Positions 1 through 7,164 of a stretch of DNA of 64,000 bases are shown here, in pieces. Below the pieces are notes generated by a model, which was given only the letters and a program-made list of their open reading frames with translations, was not told where the DNA came from and ran no database searches. The DNA is from Shigella phage ESH35. Position 1 is the first letter of the stretch, and every line of letters starts with the position of its first letter. Location of the stretch: sequence record ON528745; one strand, given 5' to 3'. The translations under genes and the position numbers were made by a program.

Positions 1-2
1 AT

Positions 3-650
3 GGTCGACATATAACTAATAACATCAATGATTCGTATGTTGGTAGTGGAAATTATATAGAACGTGTAAAAGTGTCAAATGACCACATATTATCAAAAAC
101 GGTTTTAGAAGTTTTTGATAATTATGATAAAATGGTACAAGCTGAAATATTATATATCATGGCAGGTAAATTGAAATATGGAAAAAACTGTGTTAACCTG
201 TCATACGGGGGTGAAGGAGGAAAGGTTGCAGATGAAACTAGGATAAAATGCAAAAAGCATTCTATAAATTTATGGAAAAATCCTAATCATATACAGCATA
301 TGAAGAAAAAGATGAAAGAGGTCACATCCACGCCGGAAGCTAAATTAAACACTTCAATAAAAACTTCGCAACGATATAAGGACCCAGTTTTTGTTAGAAA
401 AGTTAGTAATATTATTAAAAAGAAACTAAACAATCCTGCAGTAAAAGAAAAGCATATTAATGGAATTAAAGCTGCAAAGCGTTCTCATTTAACTATATGG
501 CAGTATGAAGATGAATTATTCGAGCTTTGGAAAGAAACTAAATATGGATGGAGAAAATTTACAAAGGAAGCTATAAAACACGGATATCCAAATGAACCGT
601 ATCGTAGTATGGTATCAACTTTTCAGAAAAGACATTTAGAAGAATCCTAA
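3..650 (+). CDS. GIY-YIG-family homing endonuclease (Seg-like), 5' end outside window
   Basis: Frame of track ORF 72..650 stays open to the window edge; upstream residues ...NDSYVGSGNYIERVKVSNDH resemble the YIG-Arg-His half of the GIY-YIG motif (cf. I-TevI); basic C-terminal half looks like a DNA-binding domain. Confidence 0.5.
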   Translation, partial: GRHITNNINDSYVGSGNYIERVKVSNDHILSKTVLEVFDNYDKMVQAEILYIMAGKLKYGKNCVNLSYGGEGGKVADETRIKCKKHSINLWKNPNHIQHMKKKMKEVTSTPEAKLNTSIKTSQRYKDPVFVRKVSNIIKKKLNNPAVKEKHINGIKAAKRSHLTIWQYEDELFELWKETKYGWRKFTKEAIKHGYPNEPYRSMVSTFQKRHLEES

Positions 651-720
651 GACAAAAAGGCAGTTCAGAAATAGATTATATGGACTGCCATCAAAAAGAT
701 GACTAGAATTAAACTGGTAA

Positions 721-1035
721 ATGGAGGTAATGATGTTATACTCAAAGGCTCGTGAAATTTATGAAACTAAAATTAAAGAAGCAGTATTTCAGTTCGCAAC
801 GACAATGCGTTGGACAAATGATTGGGAGTATTCAAAAAATCATAAGAAGCCCTTGGTGACAAGAAAGGCTCATATGTTAGTGTTAATAGACCGTGAGCAG
901 ATTAAAGCCCGAGAAGCCCTCCAGAATCATAAAAAGGCTGCCTTTGAATGGTTTATGGATAACACTGCTCCTGAGACTAAGAAAGCAGTGAGCGCTTGGT
1001 TCAGTGGAAAAAATTGTGAAAGAAGTTTCTTTTAG
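721..1035 (+). CDS. hypothetical early protein
   Basis: 104-aa track ORF with GGAGG just upstream of in-frame ATGs at about 730/733; sits in nrdC-distal plastic region. Confidence 0.4.
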   Translation: MEVMMLYSKAREIYETKIKEAVFQFATTMRWTNDWEYSKNHKKPLVTRKAHMLVLIDREQIKAREALQNHKKAAFEWFMDNTAPETKKAVSAWFSGKNCERSFF

Positions 1036-1037
1036 TT

Positions 1038-1095
1038 GTTTACAAGACTGTTCCTCTGTGGTACTATACAACTATCAACTACGGAGGAACAGAAA
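1038..1095 (+). promoter_or_regulatory. early promoter/leader cassette copy A (PeSL-like)
   Basis: GTTTAC -35, TACTAT -10 after TGTGG, leader ACAACTATCAACTACGGAGGAACAGAAA; 9-bp arms CTGTTCCTC/GAGGAACAG flank the -10; coordinates +/-2. Confidence 0.6.
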
Positions 1096-1623
1096 ATGAA
1101 CGCTAAAGATATTTTCAACTTGGTAAATTACAACGATGGTAAATTTAAATCTGAAGCACAAAGCAAGTTCTTTAATGACATCTCAATCGGAGGTGAAATC
1201 ACTGTTGATGGAGGACAAATTTACAAATCCCGTTGGAATTGGATCGTTATTATCGATGAGATTGGTATTGTAGAAATTTACAAGAATACGAATAAAAATC
1301 GTACATTACACTGGTCTCGTGATACTAACGAACAGTACAAAAAGGATAAAGCATCTAAATTATCTCGTGTAACTCAAGAAGATATTGAGTTCATCAAGAA
1401 AGATATTTTGATGTATGATAACTTAATTGCTGAAGAGCAAGCTGTTATTGATAAATTTGACGAGATTAAAGCTTCTCGTGAAATTCCTGATTTTATGAAA
1501 GAATCAGTAAATGAACGATACACTCTCATTTCAGAGCGTATTGAAACTTACAAAAAGCAAAGAGCTGAACGCCAAAATACTCTTCGGAAGTTTGAAGAAC
1601 GGTTAAAGACGGTACTCGCATAA
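1096..1623 (+). CDS. hypothetical protein with helical/basic C-terminal tail
   Basis: Track ORF 1036..1623 begins inside the promoter cassette; start moved to internal ATG (index 21) preceded by GGAGGAACAGAAA. Confidence 0.55.
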   Translation: MNAKDIFNLVNYNDGKFKSEAQSKFFNDISIGGEITVDGGQIYKSRWNWIVIIDEIGIVEIYKNTNKNRTLHWSRDTNEQYKKDKASKLSRVTQEDIEFIKKDILMYDNLIAEEQAVIDKFDEIKASREIPDFMKESVNERYTLISERIETYKKQRAERQNTLRKFEERLKTVLA

Positions 1624-1678
1624 CCGCTTTATACCAAGGATGGTATAATGGTTCTAAGCCCTTTTAATTGAGATTATT

Positions 1679-2086
1679 ATGAAACAGTTGATAATTAAAA
1701 GATTGAATTTATTGATATGTTGTTTATGTGTAGTAGTTGCATATGGTTATTACGCAATTAATGATTATATGCATTATAAAGATTATGATGTTACTGTAGT
1801 TAATACCCTTACAGGAACTCAAGGAAAGGGGTCTAGTTTATCGTTTATTGCCGTATATGAACTCAAAGACGGTTATAGATTTAGCGAATATATTTCACCA
1901 GAGATGTATTCTTCAATAGAAAAAGGTGATAATATTACTGTAAGTTTACGTCCTTTCGACGTAAAACAGACATTGTTTGATAATATTGTTTGGTTCTTTG
2001 GAATGGTATTAGTTCAATCTGTATGCGGTGCTTATATAGTCTTTTCCATCATATTCTGCGTATTTAGTAAAATTGAAATTGAGTGA
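1679..2086 (+). CDS. small membrane protein (two hydrophobic segments)
   Basis: 135-aa ORF; N-terminal LLICCLCVVVAYGYYAI and C-terminal IVWFFGMVLVQSVCGAYIVFSIIFCVF hydrophobic stretches. Confidence 0.5.
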   Translation: MKQLIIKRLNLLICCLCVVVAYGYYAINDYMHYKDYDVTVVNTLTGTQGKGSSLSFIAVYELKDGYRFSEYISPEMYSSIEKGDNITVSLRPFDVKQTLFDNIVWFFGMVLVQSVCGAYIVFSIIFCVFSKIEIE

Positions 2087-2093
2087 GGAAAAT

Positions 2094-2981
2094 ATGTCAG
2101 TAGTAATTAATAATGTCAATGCAGTAATTAAATCTTTAGTTAATAAAAAATTGAATGAATGGACTGTACTTCGTCGTGGAGAGCCAGATAAATTTTTTCA
2201 TAGATTTAACCCAACTTTGGATTTGAATGTTATTGACAGAGATGTTCATGCTGAAATTTTAGATAAATTTAAAGTTGATATTGGGTTTGGATTAGATAAA
2301 CATTTACAGCGAACAAACGGGTCTGGAATGAGTTTATCTAATCGCATCATGAAAGCCCTTAATAAAATTGGAGCATTGTCTCGTATTAATGCAAGTGAAA
2401 TTCTTCGCAATTATAATAAAGGCTATGATCTTTACGGTCGACTAATGCCGAAATTATCATTTGACCAAATGATCGCAGATTTGTGGGAAAATCAACGACG
2501 ATTATTAGCATTAGGCGCTCGATTAGCTAAAGGTCTAGATAAACAAATGATTTTTAAGACCAATAATACAGAAGACCTTAAATGCTTTAAATTTAGCACT
2601 CGTGGAGATGATTATTACGTCAGAGCTCACTCTACAGATTATGCCAATATGGGTCATCATCTCTGTTTAGCTTTTGAAATTTTAAAAGAAGCCGGAACAT
2701 TAGAATATTCATCTGGTGCAAAATGTCCAATTGGTTCAAGTTGTATTTTAATTTATCGCCCGGATGAATCCAGTTCATCTAAATTACCTACAAAACCTGT
2801 ACCAGTTCGTAGTAACGAAAAACATTCTGAACAAATTGATTATTTTAATAAGCAAATTGAAGAGCTGAATATTTCTATTCAGCAATATGATGATGAAATT
2901 TTCAGACTATCTGGACTGAGTAGTAAAGCTAAATCTGAGCGTGAAAAGTTAATTAAAATTGTTGATTTACTTAAATCTTAA
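2094..2981 (+). CDS. hypothetical protein with C-terminal coiled coil (tandem family member 1)
   Basis: Track ORF 2073..2981 trimmed to ATG after GAGGAAAAT; about 295 aa; C-terminal heptad-like helix. Confidence 0.55.
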   Translation: MSVVINNVNAVIKSLVNKKLNEWTVLRRGEPDKFFHRFNPTLDLNVIDRDVHAEILDKFKVDIGFGLDKHLQRTNGSGMSLSNRIMKALNKIGALSRINASEILRNYNKGYDLYGRLMPKLSFDQMIADLWENQRRLLALGARLAKGLDKQMIFKTNNTEDLKCFKFSTRGDDYYVRAHSTDYANMGHHLCLAFEILKEAGTLEYSSGAKCPIGSSCILIYRPDESSSSKLPTKPVPVRSNEKHSEQIDYFNKQIEELNISIQQYDDEIFRLSGLSSKAKSEREKLIKIVDLLKS

Positions 2982-2989
2982 GGAACACT

Positions 2990-4015
2990 ATGAAAACTCG
3001 TTCTCAAATTGAAGATATGGTTCGTAATTGCAGCTATACTCGTGATGTTATGACATTTTTGTGCCAAAATAATTTAGACCCTGATAAAGTTAATCGTGAT
3101 ATTCACTTTAAATATATGAATAGCAGTGAATGGTTACGTCATTTTAGTAAAGCAGGGTATATTACGCAAATGACTGCTCGTGAACAGCTCACCGATTTCT
3201 GTAAAACTATTGATTATAAAAATCCTCTATTTGTTCAAGGTGTTGGTCAGAGTAAGGTCGATTTATCATCTGGATTTTTCAATCCAAATCATTATCGTAT
3301 TGAATGGAGATTTATTGCTCTATTCCGTAAACAATTAAAGCAAATTTTGTCGACGGCTAGTCGATTAAAAGGTTCTGACATTAACTTAAAGAATCTGAAA
3401 TTTGATGGTTATACTCTTCAGATGGAAGTAAGACCATTAAAAGAAAATAATAGAACTGCACGAATTAGCTTTAAACCTAGTACTAAAAATTCTCTTTCAA
3501 TTTGTGAATGTCTTAAATCACAGCTGACAGAAGCATTTAAGTATATGGATGTTGTTGCTGCTGTTCAATCTAAGATTTCGCAGCATTTCGAACGATTTAA
3601 ATTAGATACGACAACATATGAACTTGATATGATCGTTTCATTTAAATATGATTTTTTGAGAAAGGACGAAGTTACACAAGAGAAAAAGCAGGAAGTGCAA
3701 GATAACTTAAATTTAAATTTATCCAATTACTTATCAAACGATCCTAAATTTTGGATGTATAGTTCAGGTAATAAGGATGCATGGAAATTCAATAAAGTGA
3801 ATTTTCTTCCTATTGAAAATCCTAGTCTTAAACCTGTTGAAAAATGGCATGCAGATGCGATTGAGAAGTCTCTTAAGGCAGTAGATGATGAACTCGTTAA
3901 AGCGACCAATGAAGTGCTAGAAGCTGAAAAGGCGTTAGAACAAGCTCAGTCAAGGGTTCAAAATCTGACAAAGCAACGTTCTAAACTGAACAATGCACTA
4001 AATGCACTGAACTAG
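2990..4015 (+). CDS. hypothetical protein with C-terminal coiled coil (family member 2)
   Basis: 341-aa ORF starting MKTR..; ends in about 45-aa predicted coiled coil (EAEKALEQAQSRVQNLTKQRSKLNNALNALN). Confidence 0.6.
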   Translation: MKTRSQIEDMVRNCSYTRDVMTFLCQNNLDPDKVNRDIHFKYMNSSEWLRHFSKAGYITQMTAREQLTDFCKTIDYKNPLFVQGVGQSKVDLSSGFFNPNHYRIEWRFIALFRKQLKQILSTASRLKGSDINLKNLKFDGYTLQMEVRPLKENNRTARISFKPSTKNSLSICECLKSQLTEAFKYMDVVAAVQSKISQHFERFKLDTTTYELDMIVSFKYDFLRKDEVTQEKKQEVQDNLNLNLSNYLSNDPKFWMYSSGNKDAWKFNKVNFLPIENPSLKPVEKWHADAIEKSLKAVDDELVKATNEVLEAEKALEQAQSRVQNLTKQRSKLNNALNALN

Positions 4016-4044
4016 TTTACTTTGCCACAAGGATGTGGTATAAT
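4015..4044 (+). promoter_or_regulatory. early promoter (second repeated type)
   Basis: GTTTACTTTGCCACAAGGATGTGGTATAAT; near-identical copy at about 49027. Confidence 0.55.
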
Positions 4045-4072
4045 GTTCTTACTTTCTACTGAGGAGATTATT

Positions 4073-5074
4073 ATGACTCGTAACGAATATATCAAATCAT
4101 TCAATAGCGTTATTGATGATAAAGCTATACCGATGTTTGGACAAAATAGCGTTCTTTCTATTATCAATCAATGGCTCAATAGTGTTGATGCAGGTATTGT
4201 TTCTTCTGCTAAATTTATTCATGAAATTCGTAAAATTTCTAGCCGTGTAGATAAAGATAATATCAAGAAAACCTTTAAAGAGTCTCGTCTTCTTTCATAT
4301 TTGGTTAATCGGGATATTCTTGGTAATTTTGGGAAAGAAATTAAACGAACCAAAGATGTAGTAGGATATAATTGGTTCGGTGATGTTAATTCTTATCATC
4401 TTAATAATAAAGAAGACCCTGAGAATATTTTTACTCGTCGTTGGATTAGTAATTTCAGACTTTTCAAAGGACAAATTCTAAAATCAGCTTCTAAATTATG
4501 TTATGGCGATTATCGTCAAATTCATCCTTTGGCTTCTGATATGATTATCGTAAAAGAATATGAGCTTGATGAAAATAAAGTATCTATTTTTGTGAATTAT
4601 GGATTTTTTACACCAGAAACTAACCAAAAGAATATTAATAAATTTTTCTCAATTGCTAGCACTATAACTCGTCAATTAGAGACCGCATTACTTTGTATGG
4701 AAACAGTAGAAAATATTCATACTTATCCTTTTAAGAATATATGCGGTTGGGAAGGATATAAAATTATAATTAGCCTTCGTGAAGTGAAATGTGCGTACTC
4801 ACCGACTGATAAAGAAATTTACCAACAAAAATGTGAAGAAATTGTGAATACTCCTAAAGAAGAAACTACCCTTGAGGAACTAATGGAATGTCTTGACGAT
4901 TCACCTGAACCGGTAGAAATTCGTCCAGAAGTTATTGCACTAGAAAAAGCTTATAAAGAAGTTCTAGAAATTTCTAATAAAGCACAGAAAGAATATGAGC
5001 AGGCTAAAAGGATTTGGGAAGAATCTGTTAATCGCTTGGATCGTCTTGAACAAGCTTTACAGTTAATTAAGTAA
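4073..5074 (+). CDS. hypothetical protein with C-terminal coiled coil (family member 3)
   Basis: Track ORF 4022..5074 trimmed to ATG (index 18) after GAGGAGATTATT; early promoter GTTTAC..TATAAT upstream; C-terminal coiled coil. Confidence 0.6.
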   Translation: MTRNEYIKSFNSVIDDKAIPMFGQNSVLSIINQWLNSVDAGIVSSAKFIHEIRKISSRVDKDNIKKTFKESRLLSYLVNRDILGNFGKEIKRTKDVVGYNWFGDVNSYHLNNKEDPENIFTRRWISNFRLFKGQILKSASKLCYGDYRQIHPLASDMIIVKEYELDENKVSIFVNYGFFTPETNQKNINKFFSIASTITRQLETALLCMETVENIHTYPFKNICGWEGYKIIISLREVKCAYSPTDKEIYQQKCEEIVNTPKEETTLEELMECLDDSPEPVEIRPEVIALEKAYKEVLEISNKAQKEYEQAKRIWEESVNRLDRLEQALQLIK

Positions 5075-5126
5075 TTTAAAGCCAAGGATGGCTCGGAGTA
5101 TAAATCATTAACCAAGTGAGAAGAAC

Positions 5127-6056
5127 ATGAAAACTCGTAAACATTATATTGATTATTTTGATAGTCTTATTACTAAACACCGTAATTATCAGATCGGACA
5201 CAGAGCAGTAATCAATAATATTCTTCGTGATTTCCTTCAATATGTTGGCCAGGAAAATCATATCTGTAAAGATACTCAGAACGCTTATTCTTATTCGGTA
5301 GGCAATTTGCTTGAATGGTTTAAACGTTCTCGTATGTTATCTTCTACTGTAGCTCGTGATAACATTGAAAACTTTATGAAGCCGAGCTTCATTAAATCTG
5401 CGACATCTATAACCGATTTGGTTGAATTTACTATTGTTAACGATGTTAAAAAGACCCATTTGGCTGATTGGTTATCTACCATTCCTGAAACTAAATTTGC
5501 TGATAAATTTGCTTGTCAATTCAATGACCAAGTGAATATGCTTTTTAAGCATGCTCGCAAACTATTTACCGCGGGCGATGACCGTACAAATACAGTTCAT
5601 GTTAAGGACTGGGTTATTGCTGATGAAGTAACACACAAGCCAGGTGGTTCATCAGTATTAATTAATATCCAGGTTCCTTATTATTACTCACGTAATCTTG
5701 GCACCATGACAGCTAAAGAAATTAATAAGCACAACAAAACTATTCGTTCGTTGTCTTATAAACTCCGCATGGTGTTAAAAATTATGGACGTAGTGGAAAT
5801 GTATGACGAAACCGAAGATAATGGTTCAATGTTATACAGTTCACGCATTCTAATTAAACTGAAGAACCCTAATACATATAAGACAGTTGTAAAAGAGCCT
5901 AAAGTAGAAAAGGTTGATAATCTGAGTGAAGAACGTGAATATCTCAATGCCCGTTTGATTGAAGTTGAAGCCCAAATTACAGAACACACCAAATTGTTAA
6001 AAGCTCTTAATGCAAAAGCAAATGGTTTACGTAATGCTATTGAGGTATTGAAATGA
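5127..6056 (+). CDS. hypothetical protein with C-terminal coiled coil (family member 4)
   Basis: 309-aa ORF starting MKTRK..; C-terminal helix [42 protein letters not shown]. Confidence 0.6.
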   Translation: MKTRKHYIDYFDSLITKHRNYQIGHRAVINNILRDFLQYVGQENHICKDTQNAYSYSVGNLLEWFKRSRMLSSTVARDNIENFMKPSFIKSATSITDLVEFTIVNDVKKTHLADWLSTIPETKFADKFACQFNDQVNMLFKHARKLFTAGDDRTNTVHVKDWVIADEVTHKPGGSSVLINIQVPYYYSRNLGTMTAKEINKHNKTIRSLSYKLRMVLKIMDVVEMYDETEDNGSMLYSSRILIKLKNPNTYKTVVKEPKVEKVDNLSEEREYLNARLIEVEAQITEHTKLLKALNAKANGLRNAIEVLK

Positions 6057-6442
6057 AAAAGCGTTTATTAGAAGACATTGCAGCTTCAAGTAATTCCAGT
6101 TTAATTAAAATTATTATGGCTGGTGAGGAAGATGATATGGAAATGCGTGGAAAGATTCACGGCTGCGACGATTTAGATTTTAAACCTCCAGCATGGGATG
6201 CTATTATGGCTATGGTTGAACGACGTGAAAGAGCTTCTAAAAACGTTCCTAATTGCCCTGAATGCGGTACTGAACAAGTTCAATTGATTAACTGGCGTAA
6301 ACCAGAGCTTGAATATAAATGCCGTCAATGTAAACATAAATTCAGTAAGCATGCTCCGGAAATGGTTAAATTGCCTGACTCTACTGAGTTCTTTAAAGAA
6401 CTTGTGAGTGTTCAACCAATGCCTAATAATATTTTGGATTAA
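6053..6442 (+). CDS. zinc-ribbon protein
   Basis: 129 aa; CPECG...CRQCKHKF CxxC-x18-CxxC motif; start overlaps upstream stop (ATGA). Confidence 0.5.
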
Positions 6443-6444
6443 AA

Positions 6445-6687
6445 ATGACCAAGCGTAAAGAATATATGGAGGCTGCTGAAAAGGCAGTCCGTGAATTAGC
6501 AATAGCTTATTATAATGAACATGGTAAATTTCCTGATAGATACAGCGTGCTTAAATCTGCTTTAACTCGTTCATATAAAAATATGCTATCAGAAGTAAGT
6601 GATATTATATACAAACATAAAGAACAAACGGGCCAAAGTCTTGATTACGACGAGACTTTTAAACAAGTACTAGGAATTAAGGAATAA
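6445..6687 (+). CDS. hypothetical early protein
   Basis: 80-aa ORF tightly packed between neighbours. Confidence 0.45.
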
Positions 6688-6688
6688 T

Positions 6689-6952
6689 ATGTTTAAAGTA
6701 TATGGTTATGATAGCAACATTCATAAATGTGTGTATTGCGATAATGCAAAACGTCTTTTGACCGTGAAGAAACAGCCGTTTGAATTTATCAACATTATGC
6801 CGGAAAAAGGTGTTTTTGATGATGAGAAAATCGCTGAGCTTCTGACTAAACTAGGTCGTGATACTCAAATCGGCTTGACAATGCCCCAGGTATTTGCTCC
6901 TGATGGAAGTCATATTGGTGGATTTGACCAACTGCGAGAATATTTTAAATGA
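6689..6952 (+). CDS. nrdC: thioredoxin/glutaredoxin NrdC
   Basis: 87 aa, CVYC redox motif, sequence recognised as T4 thioredoxin. Confidence 0.85.
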   Translation: MFKVYGYDSNIHKCVYCDNAKRLLTVKKQPFEFINIMPEKGVFDDEKIAELLTKLGRDTQIGLTMPQVFAPDGSHIGGFDQLREYFK

Positions 6953-7164
6953 TGCTCGAAGGAACTGACTATATTCATGATTACCGCGGAAGCGCGGTAT
7001 ATGTAGGTGATGAAGTTGCAGTTTATTATGGGTATGGAACTTTGATGACAGCCAAGGTTATTCAAATTAAAAATAATCGTGCTAAACTTGAAGTTTATTA
7101 TTCTAATGGTGAAAAGTCTATTTCTAAGTGGAAATACGGCGATTGTATGGTCAAACTGGGGTAA
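6949..7164 (+). CDS. hypothetical protein (49.3 position)
   Basis: 71-aa ORF overlapping nrdC stop by 4 nt. Confidence 0.45.
   Translation: MMLEGTDYIHDYRGSAVYVGDEVAVYYGYGTLMTAKVIQIKNNRAKLEVYYSNGEKSISKWKYGDCMVKLG

Follow-up and report, generated by a model that had tools for sequence, protein, structure and literature searches.

Bacteriophage T4 is the best-studied lytic phage, yet the genes upstream of its glutaredoxin gene, nrdC, are mostly without known function. The text of one report (PMC9391042; Srikant, Guegler & Laub, eLife 2022) describes a T4 mutant with large deletions that does not plate on Escherichia coli ECOR17 or on K-12 carrying dsr1 of ECOR17; plasmid-borne T4 nrdC.5 restores its plating on cells with Dsr1, a SIR2-type NADase defence, so that the evidence given there is genetic rescue. 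Literature searches on nrdC.3, nrdC.4, nrdC.6, nrdC.8, the Pfam families DUF7235 and PF26897, and inhibitors of Dsr1 returned functional data for nrdC.5 only and no later work on its mechanism. DSAD1, with which SPbeta-group phages inhibit DSR2, likewise counteracts a defence-associated sirtuin NADase (PMC10973363, PMC10981675): DSR2 is activated by the tail tube protein, and DSAD1 blocks it by occupying the same pocket of the sensor domain (PMC10973363). The C-terminal sensor of DSR2 differs from that of DSR1. The likeness is one of analogy, not of membership, although the DSAD1 mechanism could serve as a reasonable model for NrdC.5. Phage tail terminator and tail completion proteins, with a lambda gpU-like fold, are also among the closest known systems. 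Here, we analyse the nrdC.8-to-nrdC.3 block of Shigella phage ESH35 in a stretch of 64,000 nucleotides from sequence record ON528745 (hereafter, the window), where five open reading frames (ORFs) between positions 1096 and 6056, one of them the counterpart of nrdC.5, encode proteins with long C-terminal helices.

The window belongs to a Tequatrovirus (T4-like) genome, is oriented in the direction of early transcription, and shares 97% identity over bases 1000-6100 with hundreds of T4-like (Tequatrovirus) genomes by megablast. Synteny and the annotation of relatives (vB_Eco_NR1 and RB3) identify the five ORFs, all on the + strand, as T4 nrdC.8 (1096-1623; 175 amino acids [aa]; phrog_2274), nrdC.6 (2094-2981; 295 aa; phrog_2257), nrdC.5 (2990-4015; 341 aa; DUF7235 [PF23882]; phrog_2351), nrdC.4 (4073-5074; 333 aa; phrog_1435; PF26897), and nrdC.3 (5127-6056; 309 aa; phrog_1435; PF26897). 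A preliminary description of the block had placed all five ORFs, of 175 to 341 aa, correctly; the comparison that it suggested, with T4 nrdC.10 and nrdC.11, concerns the wrong genes, and its head-to-tail run of five is interrupted by nrdC.7 (1679-2086), which has no such tail and lies between the first and the second ORF. Good Shine-Dalgarno sequences and conserved N termini back the five starts, that of nrdC.4 at 4073 having a GAGGAG Shine-Dalgarno sequence and a conserved MTRNEY N terminus. The M(K)TR beginning that had been noted in three of the proteins is confirmed and is kept in homologues: T3 and R4 are invariant in alignment A4 (41 sequences), and T2 and R3 are nearly invariant in alignment A5 (45 sequences), both of which were enriched from the protein database for hhalign comparisons. 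On balance, we think it likely that nrdC.6, nrdC.5, nrdC.4, and nrdC.3 constitute an old, moderately fast-evolving counter-defence family within the T4-type early-gene cluster, consisting of tandem paralogues with coiled-coil tails, from which nrdC.8 stands separate.

Pairwise BLASTP among the five ORFs yields a single link, between nrdC.4 and nrdC.3 (E = 1.4e-9, aligned end to end), and nrdC.3 is the paralogue nearest to nrdC.4. Both match phrog_1435 (E = 6e-169 for nrdC.4 and 2.5e-115 for nrdC.3), and all 94 of the nrdC.3/nrdC.4 homologues found bear a precomputed PF26897 annotation. The ORF at 2990-4015 matches Pfam DUF7235 over the entire model (E = 7e-120; 400.5 bits against a cutoff of 30; positions 1-307 of 307), whereas the other four ORFs have no match to this family. 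Profile comparison nevertheless joins the two groups: the nrdC.5 family aligns with the nrdC.3/4 family at 94% in hhalign (E = 1.4e-7, 146 columns) and at 96.7% in global mode (E = 5e-10), a result that required the enriched alignments, since shallow local alignments gave merely 21% for nrdC.5 against nrdC.4. Iterative hidden Markov model (HMM) searches make the same connection through gp080 of Klebsiella phage Marfa, a protein of 315 aa that starts with MTRNEV, ends with AIQALK, is encoded directly upstream of an nrdC.2 homologue, and matches both the nrdC.5 and the nrdC.3/4 profiles (E = 1e-13 and 1e-12). A first iterative run had linked nrdC.5 to nrdC.3 via P0056 and was discarded because P0056 is a natural nrdC.5::nrdC.3 fusion and, hence, a false bridge; Marfa gp080 joins the two with P0056 excluded. 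Searches of PDB sequences with all four family profiles gave only weak coiled-coil or chance matches, and a scan of NCBIfam gave none.

The AlphaFold2 model of nrdC.5 (41-sequence alignment; predicted local distance difference test score [pLDDT], 72; predicted template modeling score [pTM], 0.60) consists of an alpha/beta body (aa 1-223; 2990-3658), a disordered linker with pLDDT below 50 (aa 224-280; 3659-3829), and one continuous terminal helix (aa 283-340; 3836-4009). In nrdC.4, an acidic, proline-rich linker (approximately aa 251-285) precedes a coiled-coil tail (approximately aa 286-333; 4928-5071), and nrdC.3 has a short linker followed by a coiled-coil tail at approximately aa 262-309 (5910-6053).

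We consider nrdC.6 to be, with high probability, the most divergent member of this family, and here the structural evidence is stronger than that from sequence. Its AlphaFold2 model (5-sequence alignment; pLDDT, 75; pTM, 0.65) comprises a body (aa 1-226) and a disordered linker (aa 227-242) that leads into the terminal helix (aa 245-294; 2826-2978), modelled as two segments (245-274 and 277-294). Its elements follow one another as they do in the nrdC.5 model: HH-HH-EE-H-EE-linker-long helix. Foldseek searches of BFVD with either model return uncharacterised 300- to 375-aa proteins of other T4-like phages, and three entries are hit by both: A0A0A0PZG4 of Pectobacterium phage PM2 (E = 2e-5 with the nrdC.5 model and 2e-7 with the nrdC.6 model), A0A2S1GM98 of Erwinia phage Cronus (3e-8 and 3e-4), and A0A2Z4QAR2 of Klebsiella phage Mineola (3e-6 and 5e-4). 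By element order and shared hits, then, the modelled nrdC.6 has the fold of nrdC.5. At the profile level, nrdC.6 matches the merged superfamily weakly and collinearly (hhalign, local E = 7e-4 at 27%; global E = 4e-5 at 43%), through the two motif blocks by which nrdC.5 and nrdC.4 also align, and gp94 of Yersinia phage fHe-Yen9-01 has matches to the profile of nrdC.6 as well as to that of nrdC.3/4. A phmmer search with nrdC.6 against 1.84 billion representatives found its own narrow family alone (11 representatives) and no bridge to the others.

Whereas the preliminary description saw five unrelated-looking bodies with no obvious common motif that share only a C-terminal module, the absence of a motif holds for pairwise BLAST only, and even there nrdC.4 and nrdC.3 match; by profile and fold, the bodies of nrdC.5, nrdC.4, and nrdC.3 are homologous and that of nrdC.6 very probably is too, the relationship running through the whole length of these four proteins, as in tandem paralogues. 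Databases hold PF26897/phrog_1435 (with ORFs 4073-5074 and 5127-6056 as members), DUF7235 (phrog_2351), and the nrdC.6 group (phrog_2257) apart; they are joined here into one proposed superfamily.

The fifth protein, nrdC.8, is not a member of the nrdC.3-to-nrdC.6 family. Its lowest hhalign P value against the others is 0.038 over 9 columns, and that against the merged superfamily profile is 0.78; iterative HMM searches never pick it up, it differs in length, and it lacks the A-[LI]-x-[LA]-L-K signature with which the four paralogues end. The N-terminal half of nrdC.8 is beta-rich by sequence, and its C-terminal half is coiled-coil-like (tail at approximately aa 131-175; 1486-1620), with weak coiled-coil-type matches in PDB only. 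It shows at least 99% identity in 402 phage records and 67 to 85% identity between genera, and its ratio of nonsynonymous to synonymous substitution rates (dN/dS), 0.01, is the same as that of nrdC, indicating much stronger purifying selection than on the four paralogues. We conclude that nrdC.8, small and strongly conserved, stands apart from the family and that its helical half resembles the other tails only in composition and periodicity; the earlier count of five family members falls to four. The literature found mentions nrdC.8 solely as a site of moderate RegB cleavage and among the genes down-regulated in DRT1-expressing cells. In addition, Foldseek with the nrdC.5 model weakly hits a BFVD entry from Klebsiella phage KPV15 (A0A1J0MH73) that has the length of nrdC.8, 175 aa (20% identity; E = 9e-3; prob. 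0.97). The nrdC.8 HMM finds no homologue in the Jiaodavirus locus examined, and this entry may be either the counterpart of nrdC.8 or a member of the family that has been truncated.

The tails were quantified with an ad hoc heptad score that favours hydrophobic side chains at a/d and polar or charged ones at the remaining positions, penalises proline and glycine, and takes the best of seven registers in 35-residue windows. The 87 non-overlapping ORFs of the 64-kb stretch, to which it was applied, supply a background of 15,592 windows. The C-terminal tails of the five ORFs take ranks 1 to 5 of 87 (scores of 16.6 to 21.2; nrdC.5, 21.2 [rank 1]; nrdC.8, 19.5 [rank 2]; nrdC.3, 18.4; nrdC.4, 16.6), each above the 99.5th percentile of the background. 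All five are thus far above background by this score, and, because the control is the same genome, they are not a by-product of A+T-rich composition. Their weak profile matches are solely to coiled-coil proteins (e.g., Smc, keratin, EmrA, and the heptad repeat of RSV F). The charged, heptad-like terminal helices of the preliminary description are therefore real, but in the AlphaFold2 models of nrdC.5 and nrdC.6 they are 45 to 58 residues long rather than 35 to 45.

The terminal signature A-[LI]-x-[LA]-L-K closes nrdC.6 (as IVDLLKS), nrdC.5, nrdC.4, and nrdC.3; in the form [AI][LIV]x[LAV][LI][KN], a motif defined post hoc, it occurs 5 times in 18,115 positions of the 87 ORFs, and 4 of these occurrences are the C termini of the paralogues. 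Beyond the heptad pattern and these last six residues, the four tails share nothing. Conservation of the tail exceeds that of the body among cross-genus orthologues (0.59 versus 0.43 in nrdC.4, 0.61 versus 0.35 in nrdC.6, and 0.30 versus 0.21 in nrdC.5), and dN/dS is lower in the tail than in the body in nrdC.6, nrdC.4, and nrdC.3. Between the paralogues nrdC.4 and nrdC.3, by comparison, the tail is the least similar part, with an identity of 0.09 to 0.12 versus 0.23 for the body. Tails that are constrained within a lineage and different between lineages are as expected of a helix for oligomerisation whose copies drifted apart once the genes had duplicated. The pattern also fits specific heteromeric pairing and is not expected of a common docking module; oligomerisation specific to each paralogue accounts for it better than does one partner for all.

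Gaprivervirus, Dhakavirus, and Mosigvirus retain the gene order nrdC.8, nrdC.6, nrdC.5-like gene, followed by nrdC.4 or nrdC.3, and gene content differs between genera, in line with the earlier placement of the block in a variable region. Together with Tequatrovirus, these make up the four genera of E. coli phages examined, all with three or four copies of the family; Tequatrovirus alone has both nrdC.4 and nrdC.3, plus nrdC.7, whereas Mosigvirus has nrdC.3 in place of nrdC.4, and Gaprivervirus and Dhakavirus lack nrdC.3. In the nrdC loci of Marfavirus, Jiaodavirus, Tegunavirus, and Acinetobacter Lazarusvirus, one member each lies 0.1 to 1.9 kb upstream of nrdC, with tail scores of 16 to 19, and the Tegunavirus phage fHe-Yen9-01 has a second member approximately 8 kb upstream. 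The paralogues are 21 to 52% identical between genera. Direct DNA repeats across 1000-6100 amount to short chance matches only, with no recent duplication and no recombination cassette, and, because the copies have no DNA similarity to each other, they stem from old duplications. In Tequatrovirus, dN/dS increases from gene to gene through the array, from 0.09 in nrdC.6 through 0.19 in nrdC.5 and 0.25 in nrdC.4 to 0.31 in nrdC.3, the highest value in the block, as against 0.01 in both nrdC.8 and nrdC. The family had been called diversifying, which holds only weakly: it does evolve faster than its neighbours (gene-wide dN/dS of 0.09 to 0.31), but there is no gene-wide positive selection, and its orthologous lineages are old and common to the four genera.

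Three rearranged or interrupted copies were also encountered. In protein P0056, encoded on a 167-kb metagenomic/ENA contig, the C-terminal part of the nrdC.5 body is joined in frame to the portion of nrdC.3 that starts at MLFKHARKLF, and nrdC.4 is lost; this corresponds to window positions ~3455-3910 joined to ~5535-6053, with the junction at a short FN..VN similarity, and shows that deletions between paralogues happen in nature. Shigella phage SP18 (L002, 5038-5942) has its nrdC.5 homologue divided between the ORFs of gp93 and gp92, and in phage Bp7 (L003, 3366-3917), a frameshift gives the nrdC.8 homologue another ending ("...SGRSIVRTPASRTSGRAPIA") in place of the coiled-coil tail. The SP18 split and the Bp7 frameshift may be real pseudogenisation or sequencing errors.

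Under the reading that we prefer, nrdC.5, nrdC.4, and nrdC.3, and very probably nrdC.6, are old tandem paralogues of one family of Straboviridae and related T4-like phages, each built of three parts: an alpha/beta body of approximately 220 to 250 residues, with M(K)TR as its beginning in three of the four, a poorly conserved disordered linker, and a single amphipathic heptad helix of 45 to 58 residues. The body would act as a specificity module that binds a host defence protein, with a different target for each paralogue, and the flexible linker and terminal coiled coil would let each paralogue self-associate, probably into homo-oligomers capable of multivalent binding to oligomeric defence proteins; tails that have diverged between paralogues would keep the copies from cross-assembling. 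The ORF at 2990-4015 resembles T4 NrdC.5 in its full-length Pfam match, its 87 to 95% identity to Tequatrovirus homologues, and its place between nrdC.6 and nrdC.4, and from this within-genus identity we infer that it neutralises Dsr1 as well. The preliminary suggestion of an anti-defence family thus holds insofar as T4 nrdC.5 counters Dsr1 and the window encodes its orthologue; it has to be amended in that the members number four rather than five, are related throughout, and do not share their tail as a module.

Several points weigh against this reading. Of the five ORFs, nrdC.5 alone is the published gene, and it is the sole member with an experimental function; anti-defence roles of nrdC.3, nrdC.4, and nrdC.6 are extrapolated from paralogy, and direct binding of NrdC.5 to Dsr1 is an assumption. 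Gene-wide dN/dS values below 0.35 give no sign of positive selection. The membership of nrdC.6 draws on medium-confidence models (pLDDT, 72 to 75; 5 sequences in the nrdC.6 alignment) and sub-threshold profile scores, and iterative HMMER at no point recruited it. A monomer model that shows a long isolated helix agrees with a coiled coil but is no proof of one. Finally, when the tail HMM of each family was compared with 2,000 heptad-position-preserving shuffles of each target tail, there was no sequence-specific tail similarity, not even between nrdC.3 and nrdC.4: two comparisons of families out of 20 had p < 0.05 (c6 versus c8, p = 0.025; c8 versus c5, p = 0.04), which is chance level, and none survives multiple testing. 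Because true paralogues (nrdC.3 and nrdC.4) fail it too, this test has little power, and, given its outcome, common descent of the tails is suggested instead by whole-protein collinearity and the terminal signature.

A decoy mechanism is conceivable for NrdC.5, with structural evidence at the level of the fold. Extended to all four paralogues, it would amount to a toolkit of decoys whose bodies mimic tail-assembly-like phage proteins sensed by the host, much as DSAD1 acts on DSR2, and whose coiled coil forms a multivalent clamp around an oligomeric defence protein; we regard this extension, drawn by analogy, as improbable. If true, nrdC.3, nrdC.4, and nrdC.6 would each disarm a different E. 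coli defence system, and the family would have the same role across the T4-like phages of Klebsiella, Yersinia, Acinetobacter, and others.

Other explanations account for parts of the same evidence. The family might comprise host-takeover or regulatory proteins that bind, e.g., RNA polymerase or nucleotide-metabolism complexes, with an indirect effect of nrdC.5 on Dsr1, such as preventing production of its trigger. The genes do sit among nucleotide-metabolism genes, their orthologue lineages are old and under purifying selection (dN/dS of 0.09 to 0.31), and the link between nrdC.5 and Dsr1 is genetic, its mechanism being absent from the literature found. We nevertheless hold this to be unlikely: the genes are dispensable in the laboratory and their loss is costless on K-12, nrdC.5 has its phenotype specifically where dsr1 is present, and dN/dS in the bodies is 10 to 30 times that of nrdC and nrdC.8.

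It is also improbable that the tails build one hetero-oligomeric complex of the paralogues, possibly with nrdC.8, such that the cluster encodes the subunits of a single machine. Plasmid-borne nrdC.5 alone restores plating on Dsr1 (the neighbours lost by the mutant are not stated in the text of the report), copy number differs by genus, with nrdC.3 or nrdC.4 sometimes missing, and distant phages carry a single copy; moreover, nature provides a split nrdC.5 (SP18), an nrdC.5::nrdC.3 fusion without nrdC.4 (P0056), and an nrdC.8 with a frameshifted tail (Bp7). Such a complex would account for the finding of nrdC.8 only in the four genera with an expanded array, always at the head of that array, for tails that are distinct and conserved in each paralogue, as for specific heteromeric pairing, and for the adjacency of all of these early genes on one strand.

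Very unlikely is the arrangement originally proposed, in which five unrelated bodies each acquired the same C-terminal module for docking on one partner (a host protein or a phage hub): although all five tails are coiled-coil-like and the top five of the window, four carry the terminal signature, and tails are more constrained than bodies in three genes, the bodies of four proteins are homologous (very probably so in the case of nrdC.6) and the tail was therefore inherited with the body rather than acquired, the supposedly shared tail is the part that differs most between nrdC.4 and nrdC.3 (9 to 12% identity versus 23% in the body) and has no sequence-specific similarity beyond heptad composition, and nrdC.8 has neither the signature nor any relationship.

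The genes of this putative counter-defence family have long been known, one function has been published, and they do not amount to a novel type of system; the mechanism that we propose is our own inference. What we add is the superfamily link among DUF7235, PF26897, and the nrdC.6 group, their common three-part architecture, and three named candidates: if nrdC.3, nrdC.4, and nrdC.6 are paralogues of the anti-Dsr1 gene, each becomes a concrete further candidate for counter-defence. By joining two Pfam DUFs and three PHROGs that occur in T4-like phages of many hosts, the superfamily would also improve the annotation of hundreds of phage genomes.

Several features of the surrounding sequence deserve mention. 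The Shine-Dalgarno regions of nrdC.8 (1075-1095, ACGGAGGAAC) and nrdC.4 (4055-4072, CTGAGGAGAT) contain GGAG, the motif of the RegB endoribonuclease, and the T4 nrdC.8 site is reported to undergo moderate RegB cleavage (PMC1702504). The best promoter-like site of the block (4016-4044) combines TTTACT, a 17-nt spacer, and TATAAT and has a TG upstream; it is located in the 57 bp that separate nrdC.5 from nrdC.4 and overlaps a terminator-like hairpin at 4023-4040; because a consensus scan of 1-7000 for promoters and terminators gave counts not above those of shuffles, this site is a lead only. Between nrdC.8 and nrdC.6, nrdC.7 (1679-2086, + strand; 135 aa; phrog_2547) has hydrophobic ends, was judged by eye to be a membrane protein, has a tail score of 1.0 with no coiled-coil tail, and is outside the paralogue family; the annotations of SP18, Bp7, APCEc01, and VR20 have no gene called nrdC.7 in this position.

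Downstream of nrdC.3 follow nrdC.2, nrdC.1, and the glutaredoxin gene nrdC (6053-6952). The first of these (nrdC.2, 6053-6442) encodes a zinc-ribbon protein of 129 aa, with its start overlapping the nrdC.3 stop (ATGA), and is longer than the 74- to 104-aa homologues annotated in SP18, Bp7, VR20, and RB3. Because its last 20 residues weakly match the unrelated phrog_21284, nrdC.2 appears to have a variable C-terminal extension.

At the other end, upstream of nrdC.8 and nrdC.9 (721-1035), the ORF listed as 72-650 (+ strand) belongs to a longer frame within 1-650 that stays open back to base 3, beginning "...NDSYVGSGNYIERVK", and the gene therefore extends past the left edge of the window. It matches the homing-endonuclease family phrog_314 (E = 3e-23), and its product may, by its sequence, be GIY-YIG/Seg-like. 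Because most Tequatrovirus genomes align to the window only from about base 647 on, this ORF is a mobile insertion between nrdC.10 and nrdC.9, present in a subset of phages; its counterpart in RB3 is annotated as a site-specific intron-like DNA endonuclease and is split into two ORFs.

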